A model generated the notes under the pieces. The model worked only from the letters and a program-made list of their open reading frames with translations, made no database searches and was not told the origin of the DNA. A stretch of 64,000 bases of DNA from a virus (lineage: Duplodnaviria > Caudoviricetes), in the IMG/VR virus record IMGVR_UViG_3300027860_000004, positions 66,282 to 130,281 of that record, one strand, 5' to 3'. Made by a program: the position numbers and the translations under genes. Below are positions 16,009 to 54,419 of this stretch, piece by piece. Positions within the stretch are counted from its first letter, which is position 1. The number at the start of each line of letters is the position of its first letter.

Positions 16009-17813
16009 CCTTTAAGTTTAATGCTTTTCGGGAGTTATGTCAAATGTCGAAGCGTAATACTTCTTTCCGACCGTATACGTTTCATAGGCGAGGCCATCGA
16101 AGTAATCGGCCAAGGAACAGAATCCTAGCCCGAAGTCTACAAGTAGCCAAAGGTCCGACTCCATGAAGTAAAGGCCCATACATTCGCAAATATCGCGCAC
16201 GTACACTTCTCCGGTGAAGAGGAGACGGAGCGCATTGTTGATGAGAAGGAAGGTGATAACTTTGAAGAGGTCGCAGTAAAGTTTCATCTTCGTTAGCATA
16301 CACCTTTCAATTTATTATGTCAAATGCCTTTTAGTCGGCAACCTTTACGCGAGCGTTGCGACGATGGTTCTTGTATTTGCCTTTCCCGCGCTTCTTATTG
16401 TAGGGGGAGTGCCAATCTTCGTGATACATCGTTCCGCGCTTGGTTTTGCGCGAGACTTCCAATTCGTAACGGAGGTTTGCTTCTCGAACATCCATGCGTT
16501 AAGTATAAACCTTCTTTTTAGTTAATGCAAACCAAGAGGAGGGGGTTCTATTTATTATAGTGCAAGAAAAGAGAAAGGACCCCTACCCTCGGGGGTCCGC
16601 TATTTCTCCCTTTTGGATGAGGTAGTCCGTCATTAGGTCCCCCGTAGACTTGAAGGGCGGAACATATGTCCGGTATGCTTCTCGACCCTCTTCCATCCAA
16701 GCGTCATAGCCATCTTGGTCGAGGATTGCATCGCATCGCATACAGGAGAGGAAACGGCCCTCATCGGTGGCATCATCACGCTTAATCGGTTTCTTCGGGT
16801 TGCCATACTCGAACTTTTCCATCGCGCAATCGACGCAGAGGCGTCTCTCGGATTGGTCGCTGTTGACTCGGTAGCCAACGATATCGTTTTCCATGTCCTA
16901 ACTATACACCTAACTTTTGGTTATTGCAAGTTACCAATCGAATTTAGTGCAAACGGGGCCGCATTTTTCGCGACATTCTCCAGAAGCATAGTGGTGGCGA
17001 ATATGTTCCGACCGTTTCGCTTCTCGTTGGGCCTCGCGTTGACGACGAACCTTCTCTGCTTGCGGGTCATAGGTCCGACCGAATCGGTTCACCGGGAGGG
17101 CACCGTTGGCGAGTTCATCACACCGGAGGCATCCTTCAACCTTCTTACCGAAGTTCGGGCCGTGATTGTGTTGCGTTCCCATAACCCTATATTACATTTA
17201 ATTAGGAGTTATGTCAAGGGATTTAGAAGTGCGAGAAGCCTTCTCAATTCCTTGATTTGTTCTTCTTTTGCTTCGATAGCCTTTTCCAGGGCCTTCTCGA
17301 ACGCTAGGATGGCCTCTTCTCCATCGGTGTAGAAGTCTTTGCGCGCGACGGAGTAGACTGTTCCGCAGGCAATTCTCCGACCATTATCGCGAACCTGTGA
17401 AACAGTAACTTCCCGAAGGTAAGGAATACCTTCGTGGTTACTGTCGATAATGAAACCTTCGGTTCCTTTGCGAATATCTTCCATCCTTTATATTTTAATT
17501 TAATCCCACAGTTATGTCAAGGAATAAGCCTATGATAAGTAGAAAGCAAAGAATGGAATAGAGGAGGGCTTGAAAAGCGCCCTCCTCTTTTTGGTTAATC
17601 ACCTTCGGTTCCCGTTGCTTGCAGAAACCGTTCCCGGTTGAAACGGGGGTTCGTTATCGCCAACGAATCGGCGAAGGCAAGGGCCGCAGAACGTCGAGCG
17701 GAACGGAGACTTGCCGAATGGGAAGGCATCCCTTTGATGGTGTCGGCAATCAGTTGAAAGTCTTTCTTCGTCATGTGCTTACTATAAACCTATAACGAAG
17801 TTTTGTCAAAGAC

Positions 17814-26371: not shown

Positions 26372-28517
26372 ACCTTAGTTTGTCACTCTGTGATTAGATT
26401 ATATCTTCTTGAAGAAGTTTTGTCAAAACCCTTTAGTTAGAAGGGTCAACAGATTGGAGTCTAAAGGACCGTGCGGCTTCACGCATTTCGGCAAGCATAT
26501 TCTCTGCTTCACGATAGTCGCTAGGTCCTGGCGCATCCTTTGTATGGTCGCCAAGGATAACTTCAAGGGCAGCAATACGGTTCGGCGTGACCTTTACTGT
26601 TGCTTGGTTAGAAGTATCCATTATTTTTAGATGGTTGCCTTGAAAGAAACCAGGTTGTAAGAGTAGGGCGAGTTCTTGACCAACTCTTCATATTGCGGAC
26701 GAGTAAGGATACCCGCAGCAAGAAACTTTTTGGCGACCTCTACATCGGCCGTAAGTTTCTCGGGAACCTCCACAAAGTTAATCTTGAAGTTCCCCCGCTT
26801 GTTACGGAAGGTGCCGGAAATGAAGGTTTCTTTGTTCTCACCCAGGGCCTTGCGAATGGCCTTAATCTTGGGCTTGAGGTCTTTCTCCAACTTCGTTTCC
26901 GCAGCGGATTTCAGTTCGGAGGTAAGGATATAGTCCCGAAGAACGGCAACGATTTCGGTTTGCGTATCTTCGGTAAGTGCGGTGACACCTTCTGCGGTCA
27001 CGGGCACGATGACTGTTTGGGCGTTTTCGAGAAGTGTGTTGCTCATGTATAAACTATAGACCTTTCAGAGAGTTATTGCAAGCAGCGGTTGTACCCGCTT
27101 TGCCTACGGTGAAGCGAGTATAACATATAAAAAACAAAAAGTCAAGTGCATTCTATTTATTATAGCGTTGAATAAAGAAAAAGGAGGATTTTTTATTTCC
27201 CCTTCTTCTCCTGTTGAAGAAAATAGTTAATGACTTCTGCTACCCGATACTTATGATTGACCCAGGTAATAGTCTCTCTGAAGATAATTTGATACCCTGC
27301 GGGGTATTCTACGATGACAAGGTTTGCATTATCAGTAGGTAAACCTGCTTTAGCAAACTCTTGCTTGATATAGTTTTTTGAGAATTTTACTTGACTAGGA
27401 TTCATTGACAGTAGAAGGTAGAACGATTCGACCATCCCCCACGGCTTCGACCAGCGTGGCAAACATTTCGTTAGATGCCTTCTGTCGGTCAAGGTGACGC
27501 TGCCACGATTCCTGAAAGGCTTTGCTTTCTGCATCGCGATAACCTTTTCGATACTCAGCATCGAGCATTTCATCGAGTTCCGATTGCTTCATCATAACAA
27601 TCGGGTTTTTGTCTGTGTGAATAAGCATATTCTATTTATAGACCTTTCAAGGAGTTAAGTCAAATCTCCATCATGCCCGACAGTAAACATGACAATCTCA
27701 AACATATCACGGGCTTTGATTGCTTTAATTGCTTCGCGTTCTCCTGTGTCGAACCAAATGCAAACCGGAAAAGTTTGTGGAACCTCCATCAAACAATCAA
27801 GTAATTCCCCAACGGTCAAGGCTTGGCTTTCATCGGCCGGTTCTTCATCATAGAGGGGAGGTTCAATCGACTGAGCATTGATTGTAACCATTGACAAAGA
27901 CGGCGAACCCTCTACAGTTTCATAAGAAACATTTGTAAAGAAAGAACCATCATCCACCCGGCATTCAAACTCCGGGTTAGTGTAGAGATTGCGAAGCGTT
28001 TCTCGCAGTTCGCTAACTTTCATTAGCCTTGCAGAACCCCCAAGGTGCCGCAGCCCTTGCAAATATCATCCGGTTCTGGGGGATGACCAAAGTCCTCGAA
28101 AAACATTTCGATTGCTTCTGGGTCATAGTCAAGAGTGATTGTGTTAATCACTTGTCCCTGGTTTTCGCATCCCTTGGTTTCACAAACCACAGAGAAAGTC
28201 ACTTCTTCTAGCATGACCTTATTCTATCAATCTTAAAGAGTTATTGCAAATAAGGAGGCGGAGTTAGTCCCCGCTTGTGAAGCAATCCCAATTCGTTTAG
28301 AACCGCAATAGCAGTAGCCTGCATCCGATACTCATTCCAATCCTTAAAATCAAGTCGATTCTGCGGGGTGCTATTGCGAATGGCTCTCGCAGTTCGTTCG
28401 ATAAGGGCAACTTCTTCATCGGTATAATCCATAGTCAAAACATTATATCAAGAATTAGAAGTTATTGCAAGGGTTGTTATTCAATTTATAATAGAGTAAT
28501 AGTAAAAAAAGAGGCCC

Positions 28518-29012
28518 TTAGAAGGCCCCTGGGGTTAGTTGAGACTTCACAGGTGCATATACTACAACCTGTTCATTTCCGACCATTCCAAGGCGATTCT
28601 TGACCGCTTGGGATACATCTATGATTCGATGCGTCCATAGGTTTGGTCCTCTATCTTCTACTTTACAAGTAGCATACTTATGGGTCTTTACATTCTTGAT
28701 AATGACCCGAGTATGAAGAGGGAAGTACCAGGAAGCGCACATATTTTTGTGGGTATCGAATATGATTCCTGAAGCAGTAGGCTTCCCTTGTGTATTGTCA
28801 TCCCCCCAAGGGCATAGATTGCGGTTTCCGGCGCATCCATACCAAGAGGCTTCACCGCGAGCCTGTTGACGAAAGTGATTGTTTTGCTGCCCATGATGAG
28901 CAGCAATTCGTCGCGTATGCTTTAGGTGAGATTGTTCACTTCGCGGATGTTCTGTGCATCCGAAGAGGGAGACTCCAATCAATATGATTGAAAGATAAAC
29001 TCTTTTCGTCAT
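28518..29012 (-). CDS. RlpA-like double-psi beta-barrel lytic transglycosylase, probable lipoprotein
   Basis: Lipobox-like LFGC; GEASWYG, TASG..FD, CAS...PL.T.V.IKN, V.DRGP, RIIDVS. Confidence 0.85.
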   Translation of the reverse strand: MTKRVYLSIILIGVSLFGCTEHPRSEQSHLKHTRRIAAHHGQQNNHFRQQARGEASWYGCAGNRNLCPWGDDNTQGKPTASGIIFDTHKNMCASWYFPLHTRVIIKNVKTHKYATCKVEDRGPNLWTHRIIDVSQAVKNRLGMVGNEQVVVYAPVKSQLTPGAF

Positions 29013-29742
29013 GAATTAAGTTTATCATCTTCAATCAGTTAAATCAAATTATTGCTGATATATTACTACTACGGGAGTATGTCCCGGAACAGGGTGATAC
29101 TGAGAAAGACTTGCATCTTGCTTCAGCATTAACATAACACCCCAGAGAATGATAAGTCCGGTGACTCCACATTGAACTAGAATACCTGCAAGTTTTCTAT
29201 TCATGTCAAAAGCGCCCGTGATAATGCTTTTCCACTCGCGTAATCAACTTGACGCGCTGACCATCCTGGGTCATTTCTTTTTCTTGTTCGGACCAAGCAG
29301 GACGAGATTCACCAATGATACAATCCGTGCAACCGCAATCGCTTGGGTCAATATATTCGGTCGTTTCCTCAAAATAAAGGACCACACTTCTACGCTTATT
29401 ATTCATGATTATTAAACCTCCTCTTTTTCCAAAGATTTTTGAGATTGTAGCCATTTTTGATATTCGTGGTGACTATCATTAATGCCCCAATGACGTTTGA
29501 GGTCACGATAATTATGCCCTGTGCGAAAGCCTTGGTCAACTAATTGTTGTAAGATATTAGCGCGCATCTTACAAATGTCGCAATCAAGACCCCAATCACA
29601 AGAACTAAGTCCTACAAATAAACTATCTGTAATGTGTGAGGCTTCTCGGTCGCTAAGATTTAATTGAATGTTCTTCTTTTCCATACAAAGATTATATCGA
29701 AATCTTTTAGTTATTGCAAAAAATACTTTTATTTATTATAAA

Positions 29743-29911
29743 CAATAATGCCTACTAGGAACTTCCGTGTTCCGTTCGGCATTATTATGGTGTTTTATTA
29801 TGGTGTTTTATTATGATGTTGTAAGGGTAGGAAAACCCCCGCCTACCCTCGGGGTTTTGTAGGATGGCAAGCCCGGCCATCACGGGGTTCTTGTAGTGGT
29901 TGTCAGCCGAC
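29743..29911 (-). ncRNA. ncRNA with two tandem H-type pseudoknots and 13-nt repeats
   Basis: Promoter TTGCAA-17-TATACT; units (C)TACAA-AACCCCG...; stems GATGGC/GCCATC and AGGGTAGG/CCTACCCT; repeat CATAATAAAACAC about 2.5 copies; terminator TAATGCC/GGCATTA. Confidence 0.75.
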
Positions 29912-32900
29912 TATCTTAGTATACCTTATTGGGAGAGTAATTGCAAGACTTCTTCTGTTAAGGTTTTGCCTCGAAACTCAATCCAAATATCATCCCCAGG
30001 CCAAAACTCAAAAGTAGCAGTAACATTGTTTGTAATGAATACATCAATGTTAGAAGAACCCTTAGCAGGAACAATCTTCACAAAAGCAGGATTCTTTTTG
30101 ATTTCCCTCTTTGAAGAGAAGAACCCAAAGTGAAGCAGAATCTTCCAGAGAGGAACCATGTAAGTCCCTGCATATAATTGAACAGGAGAAGGTTCTAGTA
30201 CCCATACATTCTTTATCTGCGTAGGCATTAGAATAACCTTCTCCTCTACTTGTTCCATTACTTGAACGCCTTGGAACCCACAATCCGGTAGTATTCGTCT
30301 GCCGTTTGACTCATTCGATTGAGGTCGGAAAGTCCACGAACCTTCTCAAAAGGAGAGGGACAGGAGCAACCAGAGTCATGGCCCCAATAGACTTCCTTGG
30401 TTTCCAAATCTTCCCAAACTACAACCATATCAAATTGATAGGCTTCCTCGGAAAGGTGAATGACTTTGAGAATCTTCAAACCAACATTCTCAGGACTATA
30501 GTAAGGGTTAAAATCAGAATCAATCGTCCAATCGAAGGGTATCTTTTTGATAAATTTCGTATTATCAAAATCCCACTCGCCCTTTTCATTCAGGGTCATA
30601 ACGGAACCATCCGCAAAGGTGGCACTTACAATCTGTGATTCCCTGAAACTATCAGTACCGATGTTGCAGTTCCCGAAGTTTTCTGCTTGACTAATAATCA
30701 TAACAAAGACATTATATCGAATTTTTGAAGTTATTGCAAGCCCGTATAGACACAAACAAAGACAGGTTGGTGCCATAAATTAGAGAAATAGTTGGCAGCA
30801 AATTGCGCTTGTGTTGCTATACGAAAAGCATACAAAAGATTCCCTTGTTGAGCAGGACACCACAAAATGAAAAAGGTATCAGTTGGGCTTAAAGCGTCAA
30901 GAGGAATAAAAGATTCATCAAGCGACACAAAACCAGGAAGATTCTCAGGGAACATATTCTTCAATCCTATAATAAATTAGAGTAGTATTGGCATTTGTAT
31001 ACTACTCTAATCTATTCAAGATTGTACTAATCTACTGCTATATGAACGACCTGGACACCATTCTTTTCAGCAAGGTTGACACTTACTTCGTAACTCTTCT
31101 TTGCCTTGAAAAGAGCAGCAGCCTTTAACTGCGCTTGGTAGGAAGTCTCTGCATAGACTTCAATGCGCTTCCCTTTATAGAAACAAATGTAGCCGTTCAC
31201 CATTCTTCCTCCTCCTCAAAGTAATCTTCGTCATACTGTGAATCTTCTAGAAGAGAGTCGATAACATCTTGAGGTACAGGACTTGCAAGGAGGTCGATAT
31301 TGATAGCCGACTTTGCAACATTGTAGAGGTCCATTACCTTGAAAGCGATAAGACCACCTTTCTCTCCGTAATCGACAACAAGTAACGCCTGTTGTTCTGG
31401 ACCTTCAGAAAGAAAGGTATCATTATCTCCAAGGAAGGTGTAGATTGCTTCGGGTTCATCAGTCATTTAGGGCCAGCACTTCCTTAATTTCGGCATCGAG
31501 TTCTTCATCGGTAAAGTTGTCATATCCCTTGAAGCCGTGACGCAACAGCATTTCGATGAAGTCCCATTCACCCGTGAGGATACACTTCTCAACCGTATTC
31601 GCATCACGGTTGACAAGGAGTTCGACCTTCTCTTCTCTGTTCAATGCGCCTGCGGTGGCAAGAATGTAGTGGGCTTCTTCTATGTTCATGTATTGATTAT
31701 ACCTTCTCCTTGAAGTTAATGCAAACGTCCTAAAGCCAAACCTTCCATAATTTTGTTTGCCCCATTACGCAAGGTTGCAGCCATTTCCGGGTCTGCGGGA
31801 GGTCGCACGTACTGCTTACCAAGGTATGGACGATGTTCATACGTATACACTCTAGGAGTAGGGTTTTCTAACTCCTTAGCAAGCCCAAAAGCAGCCATAA
31901 ACACTTCAGCCCAAAGTTTTGCCGTTTTAGCATCACGACGCGCCTTGGCAATACGTTTACGGCGACCAGAGAGTTTTCTCTGCCATCGTCCTTGCGAATT
32001 CTGTTTGATAAACTGTGAGGCTGTCATAACTGAATCATTATATCATGAGAATGAAGTTATTGCAACCATCATTCAATTTATAATAGAAACGAAAAAGAAA
32101 GAGGACCGATGAAGGCCCTCTTAAGTTTATGCTACGGCTGCTTCTTCTTGGACGATTATGATGGGTTCTGCCGGAATGACTTTGATACCCTTGGGCAGGC
32201 TAGAGAAGTTGAATCCATTGGGGAGAGGCTTATGAAACCCCTCGCACTTGGTGAGGTCTTTGCGGGTCGTGGTGGTGCCTGCAAGAACGCCACGAATGAA
32301 GATTTTCTGAATCTTGGTGGTAGCCATCTAATTTATTCTCCTCTAGTTAGAAACAGCATTCTTCCGTGCAACCTTCACGGTGAAATGCAATGAAGTAATA
32401 ATGGTCATTAAGTTTTTCTTCTGAAAAGTGTTCAGAATAGGGATTGTAATATCGAGAACCCCCACTACGGTAACTCCCAAAATTTTCAATCCAGCGAAGA
32501 AGTGCTTTAACTTTTTGCACTTCGGTAAGACCTTCGCCTCGGCGAATAGTATATTTGACTTCTTCCATAAACCTATCTTATCAAGTTTTTGAAGTTATTG
32601 CAAGCCGACTTACTTGCGCTTGGACTTCTGTTTAGAAACCGATTCGATGAAGGAATGTTTGAACTTTGTGCTGTTATTACATTCCTTCTTAAAAGCATTG
32701 ACCAAGAATTCATAGAATTCCATAATGGTCATTTTCTTAATCTCTTCTACTCGGGGTAGAATTAGTCTAAACATGAAGTCATGAGAAATCAGGTAATCAT
32801 ACATTTCGTCAAAATCAAAACGCATATTACCTTTGGTAGTTGTTACATTGAAATCTTGTAGATATGAACTACCAAAGTCACAAGTTTCACAACCTGAATA

Positions 32901-36796: not shown

Positions 36797-36914
36797 TGGT
36801 GGAAATAGAAGGATTCGAACCTTCATATAGTTGACACAAGTATCGCGAATACCTGGTGAGAAGAGACTAGTATTCTCTGTCAACCTGTTTTAATACCACT
36901 TAAACTATATTTCC
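36797..36914 (-). ncRNA. tRNA-like RNA with two-hairpin insert replacing the anticodon loop; encoded CCA
   Basis: Acceptor GGAAATA/TATTTCC-A-CCA, D-arm GTTT/AAAC, T-arm GAAGG-TTCGAAT-CCTTC, stem GTTGACA/TGTCAAC enclosing two hairpins. Confidence 0.88.
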
Positions 36915-42676: not shown

Positions 42677-43408
42677 TTACAACTTCTCAGTTTTGATAAG
42701 GTCGTTTTCGAGAAGAAGTCTCAAAACTTCCGGGAGAGGTTCTTCACCTTCATAGGCATTTAGAGGGTCCCCAGGAGTCTTGAAGCGAGTATACAACTTC
42801 TCATAATTAGACTTTACATTATTAATTTTACGAAGAAAGAAGGTTTGAAGATATTTATTTTCCCAAATAGTGGCGTCTACATTGTAGATTGCATTTGAGT
42901 ATTCGTTGTTAATATACGAACTCAAAATTTGAGTGGCATTATCTTGAATATCTGCCCCATCCATTTCACCATCATCGCCAAATTCTTCACCCCGCCAGCG
43001 AACACTTCCAGAAACTTTATACCCCCAGGGTGTCAAGAAGTTGTGGCAAATGTAGGCAAACCATTCCTTGTATCTGTAGAATTTTTCTCCGCCATCCCAT
43101 TCAATACCTTGAAGGTCTTGTGTAGGAACCCATTGACACCAAAGGCCAGGTTGAGTACGAGGAGGTTCATTGTAGTCAATAACGCTAGTTAATATTGCTT
43201 CATTAATATCATCGCCTACATAAAATTCTCCATCAATACCTGGAGGCAAATGAACGGCAATTCGAACTTCATCAGGAAGAATAGCAGTTGCTTTCTGACT
43301 ACGAAACATTCTTCGGGTATCAGCAAACTTTTTTAAATAAAGTGCTTGGTTTTGAGTTAAAGGTCTGTCTAAATCAAACCGACCACGGAATTGAGTGTCA
43401 TAACCCAT
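42677..43408 (-). CDS. Conserved phage hypothetical protein
   Basis: MGY.T.F.G.F.LD.PL, QPGLWCQW, WDGGEKFY motifs. Confidence 0.75.
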   Translation of the reverse strand: MGYDTQFRGRFDLDRPLTQNQALYLKKFADTRRMFRSQKATAILPDEVRIAVHLPPGIDGEFYVGDDINEAILTSVIDYNEPPRTQPGLWCQWVPTQDLQGIEWDGGEKFYRYKEWFAYICHNFLTPWGYKVSGSVRWRGEEFGDDGEMDGADIQDNATQILSSYINNEYSNAIYNVDATIWENKYLQTFFLRKINNVKSNYEKLYTRFKTPGDPLNAYEGEEPLPEVLRLLLENDLIKTEKL

Positions 43409-44788
43409 TATAAATTAAAAACCTTTGCCCTTTCAGGATTTACAGGAAGTTTAATACCCTTGACCGTTACATGGATATCTTCAGAGATATCCTGGCAGAT
43501 AAATCCAGGCGAACAAGGACACGCACAGCCTGCGTAGTGCGACCATCGAATGCCCTTTATAGGCACATCAATGTTTAGTTGCTTAAAAACCTCTGGAAGA
43601 AGTTTTCGGTATTCCTTGTGAGGTTCGACACCCCGAGCCACAAGCATATCAAAGACGCCTGCGCCTTGTACAAAGAAGTAAATTCGACCATTTCTCTTTC
43701 GATAATTGCGCCGATTGGCAGGAGAAAAGAATTTCGCTTTCACAATTTCTAACATATGAGTATCTTACATTATTTTTGAAGTTATTGCAAATGCTGATTA
43801 GTCCCTACTACATTAAGAGACAGGTTCAATGTAGTAGAGACTAAATCTTATAAACTTCTTCGGGACGCACTTCATGGACATAGGACATAGCCCGGCGAAC
43901 GGTTCTATCCGTTTCGTCCACAAGATGGCATATTGTGAAATGAATGTCTGATTCAAATAACGAAGCCTTCAACTTCTGAATCATAGAAGGAGGACCCTGC
44001 AACTTCTCTAAGAAGGAGGGTTTTAGTAAGGGCGTGTTAGCCCTATGAGAGGTCGTACAGCAACCTCTCCGGCAGCGAAGTTCCTTCTCATATGTTACAT
44101 CAATATGATTGGGAGTGAGTAATTCGGAATCAACATGTTCTAAAAACATATTGACATTATATCATATTTGAAGTGTTTAGTCAAAGAATGAAGCATAAGA
44201 TAATTGATAAGAATACCACAGCAATCTGTCCATCTTATCAAGAACTCCTACATTATGACCGCGCTTCTTCATTTCGTTGAAGAAGTGACCCTTGTAGCGT
44301 TCAGTATCTGTAATGGCATCTTCAACACCAAGTATCTTGGCATCGTTAATAGCCTTGAATTCTGCTTCAGTAAATTGAGTCATGATTATATTCTATCAAA
44401 AATGAACAGTTTAGTCAAAAGCATCCATATTTCGTTTAGGATTACTTGAACGCTTATCAGCAGGATTCTTATGATATCCTGTGCCTCTGTTGGCTTTAAA
44501 AAAGTCCTGAAGCTCCTCGGGAGTCATTTTATGCTTGCTTGGAGCAGAAGGCTTTTCAAGTTTGATGACATTTTTATCAGGCTTGACTTTTGGTTCCCAC
44601 ATTTTCCCTTTACCGCCAAGTGAAATAAGTCTGGTTAAAAGTTTCGGTATCATTATATCATATCTCTCCAGAAATTGCAATCTTCAATCTATAATAATCA
44701 AGAAGAGAAAGAATGGAGCCCTGGTGAGGGAAGGCGGAACCTCACCAGGGCTCTTGGACAAGCCTAAGACGGAGTTTGCAGGGTCGTC

Positions 44789-45688
44789 TTAGGCTACGTT
44801 TTGTTCGAGAGGTGAACCCTTCCAAGCAATGGGTTTCCAATGCTTAGGATTACCCCGACGAGGTTCACAACCGATTGCTTTCAACTGAGCGGATACTTCA
44901 GCAGGGTACATACCCAATTCGGCCGCGAACGTACCAACCGGAACCAAGTCTTCAAGGTGACGCTTGGCCATCTTCTGAAGAGTTTCGTTGTCAATAGTTA
45001 CAACTTCCTTCTTCATACGGGGAGCCCTATCCTCCTTGGGAGCCTTTTCAACCGGAGTACGATTCTCTGCCCTTACGGCGCGAGCCTTAGCCAACGCTTC
45101 GGGATTCGAATTACCTCGCTTGATGGTTCGGCCCTGTTCCTTCAAGTAGTTTGAGATATAGGTAGGTTGTACATTGTATTCTTTAGAAAGAACCACGACA
45201 CCGTTACCTTTATCAAACTTTTCAAGGACTTCAGCAAGTTCAGTAGAATCCAGAGCAAGTCGCGTAGTACGCACTCGACCACGTTTGCCCTTCTCGCCTG
45301 TACGTGCAGCCGTTCCCAAATTCTTTTCTGCGGATTCATTTTCAATTGTAGAATCAGGTTCCGAAATCCGAGAAGAAGAAGATTTTTCTTGATTCTTATA
45401 GAAGGTTTGCCAATCTTCTGCATTCATGAACTTGGTTCCATAACCAGGACGATGTTTACAGAAGTTGTACATAAACCCACAAGATTTGCAGAAGATTTGG
45501 TCATGACGAGCAATCTCATCAATCTTATCCCAGGGAATCTCTTCTGCAAATAAACCAATGCCAGATTGTTCAGAGTAAGGCTTGTTTGCCAACTTGGCAA
45601 TAGCCATACTTTCTGCAACAGCCGCCTCCAGCATGTCGTTTATTTCTTGAACAGAAAGAACACTACGAGAAGTATTATTGTTTTCCAT
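44789..45688 (-). CDS. Hypothetical protein, possibly with two HTH-like segments
   Basis: Leaderless promoter; LSKEYNVQPTYISNYLK and FAAELGMYPAEVSAQLK, each followed by RGN. Confidence 0.55.
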   Translation of the reverse strand: MENNNTSRSVLSVQEINDMLEAAVAESMAIAKLANKPYSEQSGIGLFAEEIPWDKIDEIARHDQIFCKSCGFMYNFCKHRPGYGTKFMNAEDWQTFYKNQEKSSSSRISEPDSTIENESAEKNLGTAARTGEKGKRGRVRTTRLALDSTELAEVLEKFDKGNGVVVLSKEYNVQPTYISNYLKEQGRTIKRGNSNPEALAKARAVRAENRTPVEKAPKEDRAPRMKKEVVTIDNETLQKMAKRHLEDLVPVGTFAAELGMYPAEVSAQLKAIGCEPRRGNPKHWKPIAWKGSPLEQNVA

Positions 45689-46071
45689 GACCAGATTATA
45701 GCAAGGTCTTTAAGTTATGTCAAACAACCACTACTGCAAATAGATTATTAATTTGTTGAACAATAAAGAATCTATCACCAGGTTCTATTTGTTCTTTAAG
45801 ACAAAAGTTTAAAGATTCATCTAGAAGATTTCGATAGGTTATATGTTCTCCTTCTTCATTGGTAACTCCATACCATTTATCTTTAATTCGAGAAGGAACC
45901 TTAGCAACTACCTTATGGTCCTTAAATGCTACTTGACCTAACTCGGGAGTTGTTGTGCGAGGGGTAACATGAAATACAGATTCAAAAATAGAATTGAACC
46001 AACCTGGATATTCATTCTCCTTTTTTTGAATCTTAGATTGAATTCTTTTTAATGTTCTTAGAGTTGAAAGT

Positions 46072-46470
46072 TCATCCATGAGAGCGATAACGCTTGGGAG
46101 TAGGAGTATTAGATACCATATGAAAATTCTTATGTTTAGCCCATTCACGTACTAGACGTTTACCTTCTGGGTTAGAAGATTGACAACGAATAATATGGTT
46201 ATCAGGCGTGAACTCGTTATGAAAAAGTTTCTCGTCAATAAAATTCAACACAGGACGAATCGTATCATCCCCGCCTAAATCATGGTCCAACCACAATTCA
46301 GAAATATTAGGCCATTGTTTCTCTATGAAATCAATAGCAGCCTCACTTGATTTAGCATGGATGACTAACTTTCCATCATAAGAATTCTGATAGATTCTAT
46401 CATCATCAATTACTAAAATAAGTTTTCGAGGCAAAATAGTATCGGCGAGAAGGTTCATAACAAATAACAT
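46072..46470 (-). CDS. Cyclic-phosphate-processing receiver-like (cREC) protein
   Basis: LVIDDDR, SEAAI, LWLDHDLGGDDT, SSNPEG. Confidence 0.7.
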   Translation of the reverse strand: MLFVMNLLADTILPRKLILVIDDDRIYQNSYDGKLVIHAKSSEAAIDFIEKQWPNISELWLDHDLGGDDTIRPVLNFIDEKLFHNEFTPDNHIIRCQSSNPEGKRLVREWAKHKNFHMVSNTPTPKRYRSHG

Positions 46471-46536
46471 TGTAGCATTTCCAAATAGTTATTTCAAGTA
46501 GTCCCTACTACTCTATAATAAATAGAACATCAAATG

Positions 46537-46759
46537 AAAAAACCGAGGTCATGACTCTCGGTTGTTCCACGCTCTTGTACTTCGAACTTGCACCGTGATG
46601 CTTACGCTGTATCACCCTTGCCAGGGTTCAAGCGTCTGCAATTTACCATCCTAAACATTCGGAGGCTGTGCCAGCCCGGCCAATTTCATAACACGCATGG
46701 CCCTGACGTATCCGTTCAATACCCCACAGAAACTGAACGGACAAGTGTTTCTGTTTCGC
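46537..46759 (-). ncRNA. Putative ncRNA, about 220 nt, with a strong 5' H-type pseudoknot
   Basis: Promoter TTGACA-17-TATTAT; ACAGAAAC/GTTTCTGT and TCCGTTCA/TGAACGGA interleaved; terminator ACCGAG/CTCGGT-U run. Confidence 0.75.
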
Positions 46760-47222
46760 ATCTATATAATATCAGATGCAGGGTGTTTTGTCAAACCTTG
46801 GGGTTAAGAATTTTGATTCGAAGAAGAGTGCCGTATACAAGTTCGAAGCGATATTCTTTTTGTGCTTCGTTCAAACGAGCAAGCAAAGCAGGCAGAGTAA
46901 CAAGACGAGGAATCGCATTCGCTTCTTGTGAAGAAGGACCAGGAACCCAAACGAATTTATCTTTACCAGCACTCTTCACAGTACCAACATTTTTAATGGG
47001 ACCGAAGAGATATTGAATGACCCGAATGATTTGTTTACGGTTATCAATACTAGAATTAATGTTTAGGACATATTGCCCATTCTTTTGTTGGACAGTCTTT
47101 TTAAAAAAATTACCGTCTAAAGTATGAGCATTAACAGAGGACGAATCAATAGTTGAAGAAGTATTCATACACCTATCTTAGAAGAAGTTTGCAAGTTTTG
47201 TCAATTATTACTTTAAAAAATA

Positions 47223-47298
47223 TGGTAGGGCTAAGAGGATTCGAACCCCTTCCTCAAGCTTAGAAGGCTCGCGCGCTGTCCCATTACACCATAGCCCC
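47223..47298 (-). tRNA. tRNA-Arg(TCT)
   Basis: Cloverleaf, loop CTTCTAA, GGTTCGAATCC, CCA. Confidence 0.88.
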
Positions 47299-47714
47299 GC
47301 GCCTACTGTTTCTAAAATTTTCTATTGTGAAAAGAAATGGGACGAGGATTACCCTTTACAAAATGCCCTTCTGCATGAACAGGACAAGAAATAACAATTC
47401 CTCCTTCAGGAATTACCATTGAAAGAGGTTGACCAGCAGTACATTGATTAACCATTTTTATCTTTCCCTTCAATATCTAAGATAGAGAATAAATGAATTT
47501 CTTGAGCAGTAAACATAACCAGGTAAGTAAGTTCACGACCAGGAACACTATCTGCGTACTTCGCAAAGATGGGGCGAAGGGCCTCTTCAACTTCACGGGA
47601 AACTTCGTGGGCCTTCTTAGTCCAATCCCTTTGACGAGGCCCGGTAAAAACACTTTCGACAATATCCATGAAAGAATTCTATCAACTAAATTTAGTTATG
47701 TCAAATAATAATCA

Positions 47715-47791
47715 TGGTGGGCCTGGTGGGACTTGAACCCACTTAAGTCTGCTTAAAAGGCAGCGGCGTCGTCTACTTCAGCTTCAGACCC
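47715..47791 (-). tRNA. tRNA-Lys(TTT), atypical D-arm
   Basis: Loop CTTTTAA, GGTTCAAGTCC, CCA. Confidence 0.8.
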
Positions 47792-47807
47792 ATAAAGATT
47801 TTTGATG

Positions 47808-48263
47808 CTAAGAAACTACATGAATTTTGCATCCATTACAATTCTTTTTTCTGCATCTTGGTCTTATTTTTCTATTGTTTTTATTATACTCTTTATAAAA
47901 ATTCTTACAAATTTCACATCGACAATATTTGTAAGAACTTATAGTTCCATGAATATCTTTACCTTTTACTTCTTGAAATCCTTTTTCTAAAATTGTTTTC
48001 GTATTATGACAAGGTTTACAAAGTAATTGACATTTTTTACATTCTTCAACGGCTTTGTCATATGCCATTGTATTTAATTGTGCTATAGTAAATGATTTAG
48101 TATTAGGGTCAATATGGTCAAATTCTAATTGATTTACTGAACCACATACCATACATTTACCTCCAAGCAATTCTATTAACTTGGCACGTTTTTTATGATA
48201 TTTTTCGAGCATATACTTACGCATGTACTCGTTATAAAATTCTTTATTATCTCTTTTTCTCAT
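47808..48263 (-). CDS. HNH endonuclease
   Basis: LGGKC..CGS...LEFDHIDP, KCQLLC..CH..KT. Confidence 0.85.
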   Translation of the reverse strand: MRKRDNKEFYNEYMRKYMLEKYHKKRAKLIELLGGKCMVCGSVNQLEFDHIDPNTKSFTIAQLNTMAYDKAVEECKKCQLLCKPCHNTKTILEKGFQEVKGKDIHGTISSYKYCRCEICKNFYKEYNKNNRKIRPRCRKKNCNGCKIHVVS

Positions 48264-48305
48264 ACTTATATGATAGTTAAGTATGATTTGCTTTTTTATA
48301 AAAAT

Positions 48306-48384
48306 TGGTGAGTGCGGAGAGACTTGAACTCTCTAAATCTCCGACTTAAAAGGACGGGGCATGGACCACTTTTGCTTCGCACCC
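48306..48384 (-). tRNA. tRNA-Lys(TTT), second divergent copy
   Basis: Loop CTTTTAA, U-U mismatch in anticodon stem, AGTTCAAGTCT, CCA. Confidence 0.78.
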
Positions 48385-48520: not shown

Positions 48521-48596
48521 TGGTCCTGCGTGAGAATTTTGCAATCTCAACCCCCGCCTTATAAAGACGATGCTCTAACTTTTGAGCTAACGCAGG
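48521..48596 (-). tRNA. tRNA-Ile(TAT) with non-canonical T-loop
   Basis: CCTGCGT/ACGCAGG-A-CCA, TAGCTCA, loop TTTATAA, T-loop TGCAAAA. Confidence 0.75.
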
Positions 48597-54276: not shown

Positions 54277-54419
54277 CTTTTTATTATAGGACACAAACAC
54301 AGTTCTGTCAACACCAAATCAAAAGATTTTTACCCACAGACTTCTACACACTATCCACAAGGAAAAAGTTTAAAATTCTCCTGCTTGCAATTTCTCTTCC
54401 CATATCCTATAATGAATGA

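Follow-up and report, generated by a model that had tools for sequence, protein, structure and literature searches.

According to the literature (PMC3401426, PMC3475682, PMC12283969, PMC13682666, PMC5086642), a toxin–antitoxin locus of type III is recognised by a ToxN-type toxin gene that is preceded by a terminator, which is itself preceded by a tandem repeat array, with a promoter preferred (Blower et al., 2012). ToxI has 5.5 near-identical copies of a repeat of 36 nucleotides (nt). The tenpI antitoxins are described there as having two non-identical repeats that are missed by Tandem Repeats Finder and are both functional; each forms an H-type pseudoknot in which the first loop is a single nucleotide, stem 1 is conserved, a stretch of A is present, and stem 2 covaries. 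These repeats are longer than those of toxI and cptI, with a reported divergence of 'up to 35%', and in tenpI and cptI there is a long second loop and the single-stranded ends bind the toxin. In phage phiTE, a pseudo-ToxI was recognised by its similarity to the host ToxI at most positions, and the escape mutants had changed repeat numbers. RNA anti-CRISPRs (Racrs) are described as solitary CRISPR-repeat mimics in phage genomes (PMC10651486). The present study concerns a pair of pseudoknot-like units in an uncultured phage (Duplodnaviria; Caudoviricetes), IMG/VR record IMGVR_UViG_3300027860_000004. They sit in a 241-nt minus-strand spacer between open reading frames (ORFs) of 110 and 90 amino acids (aa), within a 64,000-nt stretch (the window; positions 66,282 to 130,281 of the record), and coordinates are those of the window unless the record is named.

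Read on the minus strand, both units have the same order of parts, being a linker, the 5′ arm of stem 1 (S1), the 5′ arm of stem 2 (S2), the 3′ arm of S1, a short loop, and the 3′ arm of S2, and the stems are perfectly Watson–Crick paired. The plan of the module is CUACAA(G)AA, CCC(C)G, an arm of 6–8 nt, CGGG(G), a loop of 3–5 nt, and the perfect complement of the arm. A repeat search returned the 8-nt arms of unit 2 as perfect inverted repeats; Tandem Repeats Finder, at a minimum score of 30, does not report the two units. In a MAFFT alignment of unit 1 with unit 2, 22 of the 39 columns are identical and 17 differ. What the units keep is the linker, the S1 arms, and the loop's CGGG. Their S2 stems differ in three ways, by a single compensated change from A:U to G:C, by a single inserted pair, also compensated, and by an extension of two pairs. 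The initial annotation had described stem 2 as fully different between the units, which overstates these compensated changes and the extension.

Both strands of the window were scanned for compact interleaved perfect stems, with minimum lengths of 4 bp for S1 and 6 bp for S2 and with loops of 0–2, 0–1, and 2–6 nt. The minus strand has 13 such loci and the plus strand has 14; many are AT-rich, and units 1 and 2 are the sole adjacent pair. When the 75-nt stretch was shuffled with dinucleotide composition preserved (n=5000), at least one pattern arose in 29 shuffles and two or more in none; for the 177-nt transcript the corresponding counts are 24 and none. The two-module pattern is real and non-random. 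The 13-nt motif that opens each unit is not present elsewhere in the 130-kb record in that form, and the lone other match to its regular expression (record coordinate 57605) is not followed by a hairpin. Further compact patterns of pseudoknot-like type, at 17673, 17591, and 19378 of the minus strand, are in coding sequence or are a plain terminator and were rejected as candidates.

The units are directly preceded by a promoter that belongs to a family. Using a regular expression, 40 near-identical sigma-70-type promoters were found on the minus strand between 14.7 and 55.2 kb of the window, with a further 5 on its plus strand and 7 in the remainder of the record. The consensus of the family is TTG[AC]CA-NAACT ... 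TATAAT, with NAAC following the -35 hexamer in 31 of the 40 and a 17-nt spacer in 37. In 16 of them a start codon is exactly 6–7 nt past the -10 box, which implies leaderless mRNAs and a block of leaderless early genes. The promoter of the RNA unit (TTGCAATTACT...TATACT) scores 24.0 bits and ranks 25th of the 40 against a leave-one-out matrix, level with promoters that drive ORFs. The first ORF of at least 35 aa downstream of it is the 90-aa gene, 233 nt off, which has its own promoter (28.9 bits, among the best of the family), and the unit itself contains no conserved ORF. The stretch 29946–29735 is probably a genuine non-coding transcription unit, to judge from its letters, and would be one of several promoter-to-terminator non-coding units of the phage, with an RNA of about 170 nt. 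The next promoter is the downstream limit of this unit (Table 1).

The closing hairpin, taken as the terminator, is present in both the minimum free energy and the centroid structures (pair probabilities 0.99 and 1.00), and it has the same style as the hairpin that ends another module of the phage (AAUAAU...AUUAUU-based), one of three in tandem at ~53292–52850. A promoter belonging to the units themselves and a terminator behind them had both been proposed in the initial annotation, and both were found, the former as TTGCAA-17-TATACT. Its description of two units of 34 and 39 nt with the same interleaved stem order matches the letters, and the conserved linker that it reported does open both units, with a partial third copy behind them. 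The 13-nt repeat that follows had been given about 2.5 copies and has 3.0 according to Tandem Repeats Finder.

Table 1. Features of the RNA unit and its flanking genes, in window coordinates; sequences are written 5′ to 3′ on the minus strand.
Feature	Position	Strand	Remarks
110-aa ORF	29926-30258	minus	Upstream neighbour of the RNA unit; without family match
-35 box TTGCAA	29941-29946	minus	Overlaps the final codons of the upstream 110-aa ORF
-10 box TATACT	29918-29923	minus	17-nt spacer from the -35 box; without start codon at +6/+7
Putative transcript start (~29911) and 15-nt leader	29897-29911	minus	7 nt past the -10 box; predicted from promoter geometry
Unit 1, 34 nt	29863-29896	minus	Linker CUACAAGAA (DNA CTACAAGAA(C)); S1 CCCG/CGGG, 4 bp (29886-29883, 29875-29872); 1-nt loop (T, 29882); S2 GAUGGC/GCCAUC, 6 bp (DNA GATGGC 29881-29876, GCCATC 29868-29863); 3-nt loop (CTT, 29871-29869)
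Unit 2, 39 nt	29824-29862	minus	Linker CUACAAAA (DNA CTACAAAA); S1 CCCCG/CGGGG, 5 bp (29854-29850, 29841-29837); S2 AGGGUAGG/CCUACCCU, 8 bp (DNA AGGGTAGG 29849-29842, CCTACCCT 29831-29824); loop GUUUU (DNA GTTTT, 29836-29832)
Partial third linker UUACAAC	29818-29824	minus	DNA TTACAAC; read from the sequence
A-rich 13-nt repeat, 3.0 copies	29782-29820	minus	RNA-strand CAUAAUAAAACAC; Tandem Repeats Finder
Closing hairpin	29742-29788	minus	Outer stem AAUAAUGCC/GGCAUUAUU, 9-11 bp; inner stem GGAAC/GUUCC, 5 bp; taken as terminator
U/A-rich tail	29716-29741	minus	Holds the recurrent intergenic motif TATAATAAAT; extends into the -35 box of the next promoter
Next family promoter	29691-29719	minus	TTGCAATAACT...TATAAT; drives the 90-aa gene, with ATG 29684 being 6 nt past the -10 box
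90-aa ORF	29412-29684	minus	Downstream neighbour of the RNA unit; without family match

The explanation preferred here, which is tentative and falls short of being probable, is that of a stand-alone small-RNA gene in an early-type block of a large uncultured phage, with an RNA that would act in trans as a structured decoy or sponge. Host RNA polymerase would start at the phage-consensus sigma-70-type promoter and make a non-coding RNA of ~170 nt that stops at the AAUAAUGCC...GGCAUUAUU hairpin; some transcripts may end sooner, at the unit 2 hairpin and its U run. The first ~90 nt would be two diverged copies of an A-rich single-stranded linker followed by a GC-rich core with interleaved helices. 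An RNA-binding protein or ribonuclease would be sponged by this RNA, the knots being stable scaffolds and the repeated linkers being the recognised parts. The function would be accessory, since the natural relatives differ in carrying the modules.

A passive role is rather unlikely. The hairpins would then be terminators or 3′-end stabilisers of the upstream operon in a slippage-prone spacer, the interleaving would come from local duplication, and the promoter would be idle or a relic of a lost gene. S1 of unit 2 does have this appearance, as its 5 GC pairs, 8-nt loop, and following GTTTTCC are picked up by an intrinsic-terminator scan, with a U run of just four bases, and the hairpin was scored as terminator-like on both strands. 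Against such punctuation are the family-grade promoter directly upstream without an ORF, the strong terminator hairpin at least 40 nt further downstream, the two perfect interleaved patterns that none of 5000 shuffles reproduced, and an S2 that is kept between the units by compensated changes.

Contigs from four public runs (X2 to X5) were aligned to 28400–31200. The relatives' contigs are ~90 % identical and keep the promoter and the 5′ end of the RNA. X2, which is possibly from the source's own sampling campaign, covers 28839–30260 with 0 differences, therefore the sequence is more than the product of a single assembly. X3, from soil and at a depth of 28.7, matches the flanking genes at ~95 % identity and has six letters in place of 29786–29881, by which it lacks unit 2, the greater part of unit 1, and the entire set of 13-nt repeats. 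Its promoter and RNA 5′ end (29882–30023) have 1 difference in 142 nt, compared with 29 in 583 nt on its other aligned piece, covering the downstream genes. Because the retained letters are specific to unit 1, X3 is read as a deletion derivative. X3 also skips 103 nt (30073–30175, depth 36.7) inside the 110-aa ORF, which is thus shortened or broken in that lineage and is possibly not a conserved gene.

In X5, and in X4 through a loose end, 19 letters replace 29786–29837; in unit 2 they supply an S2 3′ arm that is unchanged and a loop of five letters. The 3′ arm of S1 in this unit is CGGGC, as in unit 1, which gives an S1 of 4 bp, and the contigs continue through unit 1 without a joint, both modules being kept. 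None of X3, X4, and X5 has the 13-nt repeats. From these alignments it is concluded that the 13-nt repeats are a recent expansion of this lineage, that the long terminator-like register AAAACCCC/GGGGUUUU is specific to it, and that the core of two modules, in which S1 has 4 bp and S2 is unchanged, is common to three lineages and lost in one. The RNA element is thus accessory and fast-changing. In the stem of the closing hairpin, among the differences listed for the relatives, one pair looks compensated and two do not. Variation of the spacer by indels among close relatives, a lineage-specific threefold expansion of a 13-nt repeat, and the loss of both modules in X3 are in keeping with passive punctuation; an S1 of just 4 bp in unit 2 of X4 and X5, a poor terminator, beside an unchanged S2, argues against it.

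Refolding with the S2 arms masked gives S1 in unit 1 and also in unit 2, where its register is longer, at 8 bp; with the S1 arms masked, refolding gives S2 in both units. Taken alone, the S2 hairpins have energies of -7.1 kcal/mol (unit 1) and -11.5 kcal/mol (unit 2), and the S1 hairpins -4.7 and -9.7 kcal/mol, respectively; stacking energies add up to -22.8 kcal/mol in unit 1 and -30.4 kcal/mol in unit 2. The initiation of a pseudoknot carries a penalty of ~9–10 kcal/mol each. With this general figure, a rough hand estimate for the double knot is about -33 to -35 kcal/mol, versus -24.2 kcal/mol for the best nested fold of the 97-nt domain. S1 and S2 could coexist only as a compact H-type pseudoknot, the formation of which we infer from this modelling. 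By the loop-length rules for pseudoknots that were used for the steric judgement, unit 1 looks comfortable, having a 1-nt loop across 6 bp and a 3-nt loop across 4 bp.

A number of results weigh against a structured RNA acting in trans. The nested fold of the whole transcript (-45.6 kcal/mol, z = -1.13) is equalled or bettered by 25 of 200 shuffles, and in the nested ensemble the unit helices all have probabilities of 0.24 or below, because the G- and C-rich arms compete, also across units. At full stem length the first loop of unit 2 has 0 nt with which to cross an 8-bp helix, and by the same loop rules the unit is sterically strained unless one S2 pair opens. Since all of the stem pairs are Watson–Crick, the strand is not deducible from the pairing, and a role for the stems at the level of DNA is possible. 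S1 shows no compensated variation and has a 3′ arm that is one pair shorter in X4 and X5, and the modules are dispensable in the X3 lineage. We know of no binding partner, and transcription, the 5′ and 3′ ends, processing, and the trans-acting or decoy role are all inferred from sequence.

Homologous RNA was likewise not found in searches of phage records, contigs, and Rfam. There is no match to 29400–30300 by megablast and blastn among 50,697 phage records, and no relative among viral contigs when anchored on the neighbouring 110-aa, 172-aa, and 90-aa proteins, or among metagenome contigs when anchored on the 147-aa DUF7574 protein. DNA patterns made from the units and the 5′ leader have 0 matches in the viral contigs and 0 in the metagenome contigs. 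In Rfam there is no match at E<=10 in 29600–30050 and none at the locus at E<=1 when the 42-kb block is searched, and the element belongs to no known RNA family. An unremarkable nested fold and the failure to find a homologue also fit with punctuation.

A further explanation is a cis-acting element, either a promoter-proximal, put-like RNA for processive antitermination, which would alter RNA polymerase and let it pass the many terminators downstream, or a transcription-primed replication origin, in which a G-rich transcript is followed by an AT-rich region of short repeats. The put RNA of HK022 and the oriF and oriG origins of T4 provide the analogies. The units follow a promoter immediately, and almost all genes of the surrounding block carry a promoter and a hairpin each; this suits such an element, as do the G-rich RNA segments followed by the threefold 13-nt repeat and an AT-rich tract, and all-Watson–Crick pairing permits a reading of the stems in DNA. 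An essential origin or antiterminator is, however, a poor fit to repeats that are absent in X3, X4, and X5 and modules that are absent in X3; read-through is not needed for the next gene, given its own strong promoter, and there is no match in Rfam. On balance, the analogy makes for a decidedly unlikely explanation.

It is scarcely credible that the locus is instead a small protein gene, using a 31-codon frame from the ATG at 29880. This frame is open across both units and ends in the 13-nt repeats; it lacks a Shine–Dalgarno sequence, and its ATG is not at the 5′ end of the transcript, unlike those of the block's leaderless genes. In X3 most of the frame is deleted and, from our own reading of the letters, it is broken in X4 and X5 by a one-base change in length.

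Other promoters of the family also have no ORF nearby, examples being three in tandem at ~53292–52850 and those at 54311, 19042, 16043, and 15051, with some of the units ending in hairpins. Each of the three tandem units (minus strand) has its own family promoter and closing hairpin, and the RNAs from 53163 and 53004 would start with related GGUGUAGG...CUACUGG hairpins. None of these promoter-driven non-coding stretches (53292–52850, 54311, 19042, 16043, and 15051) has a match in Rfam at E<=1. A T-arm-like CCGGTTCAAATCCGG is present at ~26240–26220 (minus strand), in a promoter-driven non-coding stretch of ~230 nt (promoter 26426), and is called by neither ARAGORN nor Rfam.

The motif TATTATAAAT (TATWATAAAT, one mismatch allowed) has 65 matches versus 19.65 expected. 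It is found in spacers of the minus-strand block (for example, 28484, 29731, 32076, 41290, 53015, and 53173), between hairpin and promoter, and in several spacers it precedes the -35 box by ~20 nt. Its role may be that of a terminator tail, of an UP element, or of another promoter class. Among the non-coding units of the phage, GGGTAGG is not enriched (6 versus 3.26 expected). GTAGG-N4-14-CCTAC occurs three times versus 0.21 expected, a count reached by 1 of 100 shuffles, and all three sites are downstream of family promoters without a nearby ORF. As a motif common to the non-coding units, this is a weak lead.

The window is the final 64 kb of a 130,281-bp record that is classed as linear, with an estimated completeness of 78 %, and metagenome runs from moss and soil contain DNA of the phage. 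The portal protein (596 aa; PHROG 16240, E = 4.6e-54; record coordinates 43400–48300) has its nearest cultured match in Bacillus phage G, at 38.6 % identity across 75 % of its length, followed by large mycobacteriophages at ~25 %. The phage is remote from anything cultured, and these portal matches give no firm pointer to a host. In the Atlas search the two proteins flanking the RNA unit have nothing exceeding the noise level, making them orphans.

The G+C content of the record is uneven. From window ~14000 to 54000 (80–120 kb of the record) it is 41–49 % in 5-kb bins up to 110 kb of the record, and 37–39 % thereafter, with ~30–36 % in the remainder of the 130-kb record. This contrast could reflect a mosaic genome, a module of other origin, or an assembly chimera. 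In the low-G+C part, a promoter at record coordinate 62322 is followed by a Shine–Dalgarno-like GAGAGGA ahead of an ATG, unlike the leaderless genes of the block. For tRNAs in the window, Rfam gives 7 and ARAGORN 4. tRNA-related calls on the minus strand are at 36800–36914, 47718–47791, 48309–48384, and 48524–48596, the first of which is 115 nt long and may contain an insertion. A weak tmRNA-like match is present at 54939–54999 on the plus strand (26.5 bits versus a gathering score of 47).

To our knowledge, few phage non-coding RNAs acting on host defences are known, with phiTE pseudo-ToxI and the RNA anti-CRISPRs as examples. A promoter-to-terminator RNA of tandem pseudoknot-capable modules would be a concrete candidate for this group, and the natural series of presence and absence among close relatives makes the idea of a decoy testable. 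Should the RNA mimic an antitoxin, phiTE pseudo-ToxI would be the one earlier natural example of an antitoxin-mimic RNA, and discovery from sequence alone would be a first. Should it be just a structured small RNA with another target, then the early block holds short non-coding units beside unusually uniform leaderless genes, and this combination provides a lead into the organisation of early expression in such phage. Were it mere punctuation, it would be a warning that interleaved perfect complementarity can resemble a type III antitoxin.

Whether the proposed decoy is aimed at a host defence system was considered by analogy with the type III systems. It is improbable, if worth stating, that it is a counter-defence decoy that mimics a type III (TenpIN- or ToxIN-like) antitoxin, or a related RNA-guided abortive-infection antitoxin, of a soil or moss bacterium, with modules being gained and lost in an arms race. 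Quite improbable, too, is the orphan antitoxin mimic of the initial annotation, here taken as an RNA that imitates a type III antitoxin of the host (ToxI, CptI, or TenpI-like) and would be cut by the host toxin in its A-rich linkers, with the pseudoknot units neutralising the toxin as in phiTE pseudo-ToxI. The architecture put forward in the initial annotation is present, with a promoter of its own, two tandem pseudoknot-capable modules, A-rich linkers, and a terminator, and together these resemble the published layout of a type III locus except for the toxin. That Tandem Repeats Finder does not report the units departs from the 2012 description, but a functional tenpI is reported to be missed in the same way. 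The resemblance is closer than had been stated there, given the precedent of tenpI. In addition, units of 34 and 39 nt are near to the 36 nt of ToxI, and the modules vary among natural relatives, as the repeat number was altered in phiTE escape mutants.

A recognisable toxin gene nearby, on the other hand, is missing. A search of the 130-kb record with PF13958 (ToxN_toxin) is negative at E<=1, with no CptN- or TenpN-specific profile search made, and none of the eight neighbouring proteins is assigned to a toxin or defence family, or has an informative match, in Pfam, PADLOC, or PHROGs, in agreement with the earlier remark that no toxin gene is adjacent. The 90-aa gene, having its own promoter, would not be expressed by read-through of the terminator as a type III toxin would be. 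The Rfam ToxI model (RF02519) has five noise matches of up to 15.5 bits across the whole record, none of them at the locus (gathering score 50 bits). An exact 20-mer of unit 2, searched against one genome per species (185,579 species), has one match, in a Syntrophorhabdus metagenome-assembled genome, without the second arms of either stem; by our own estimate about one chance match is expected, which the single match fits. Furthermore, the natural change in the modules here is a deletion and not an expansion.

Among the closest described systems is tenpI, as portrayed in the sources cited above. In both, two tandem non-identical repeats that escape Tandem Repeats Finder are found between a promoter and a terminator, and in both the repeats are capable of an H-type pseudoknot, the first loop having 1 nt, stem 1 being conserved, a stretch rich in A being present, and stem 2 varying in a compensated way. 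Here, however, there is no TenpN or other recognised toxin gene; the units are shorter, with a second loop of 3–5 nt and very short single-stranded ends (8–10 nt per junction) where tenpI and cptI have a long loop and toxin-binding ends; and the difference between the units, at 17 of 39 columns, exceeds the reported 'up to 35%'.

With ToxI and phiTE pseudo-ToxI, this locus shares the form of intergenic, non-coding, pseudoknot-capable repeats of ~36 nt in a phage, with copy number varying among close phages. ToxI as described has 5.5 near-identical copies, whereas the two units here are diverged and have no match to the ToxI model. Likewise, phiTE pseudo-ToxI was recognised by its close similarity to the ToxI of its host, and no such host antitoxin is known here. 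The likeness to type III antitoxins in general is architectural, not demonstrated. The Racrs, too, are small non-coding RNAs of phages and are proposed to imitate an RNA of the host's immunity, as the RNA here would; in contrast to them, the constant part of the units is only ~13 nt and CGGG, and the hairpin loops are 7–10 nt. Finally, intrinsic terminators resemble the locus in that S1 of unit 2 with GUUUU fits the terminator scan and the closing hairpin matches the style of that of another module. A terminator, however, has no need of a second helix that pairs with its loop, of a duplicated module whose linker is conserved, or of its own promoter, and in the relatives it is S1 of unit 2 that is weaker and S2 that is unchanged.

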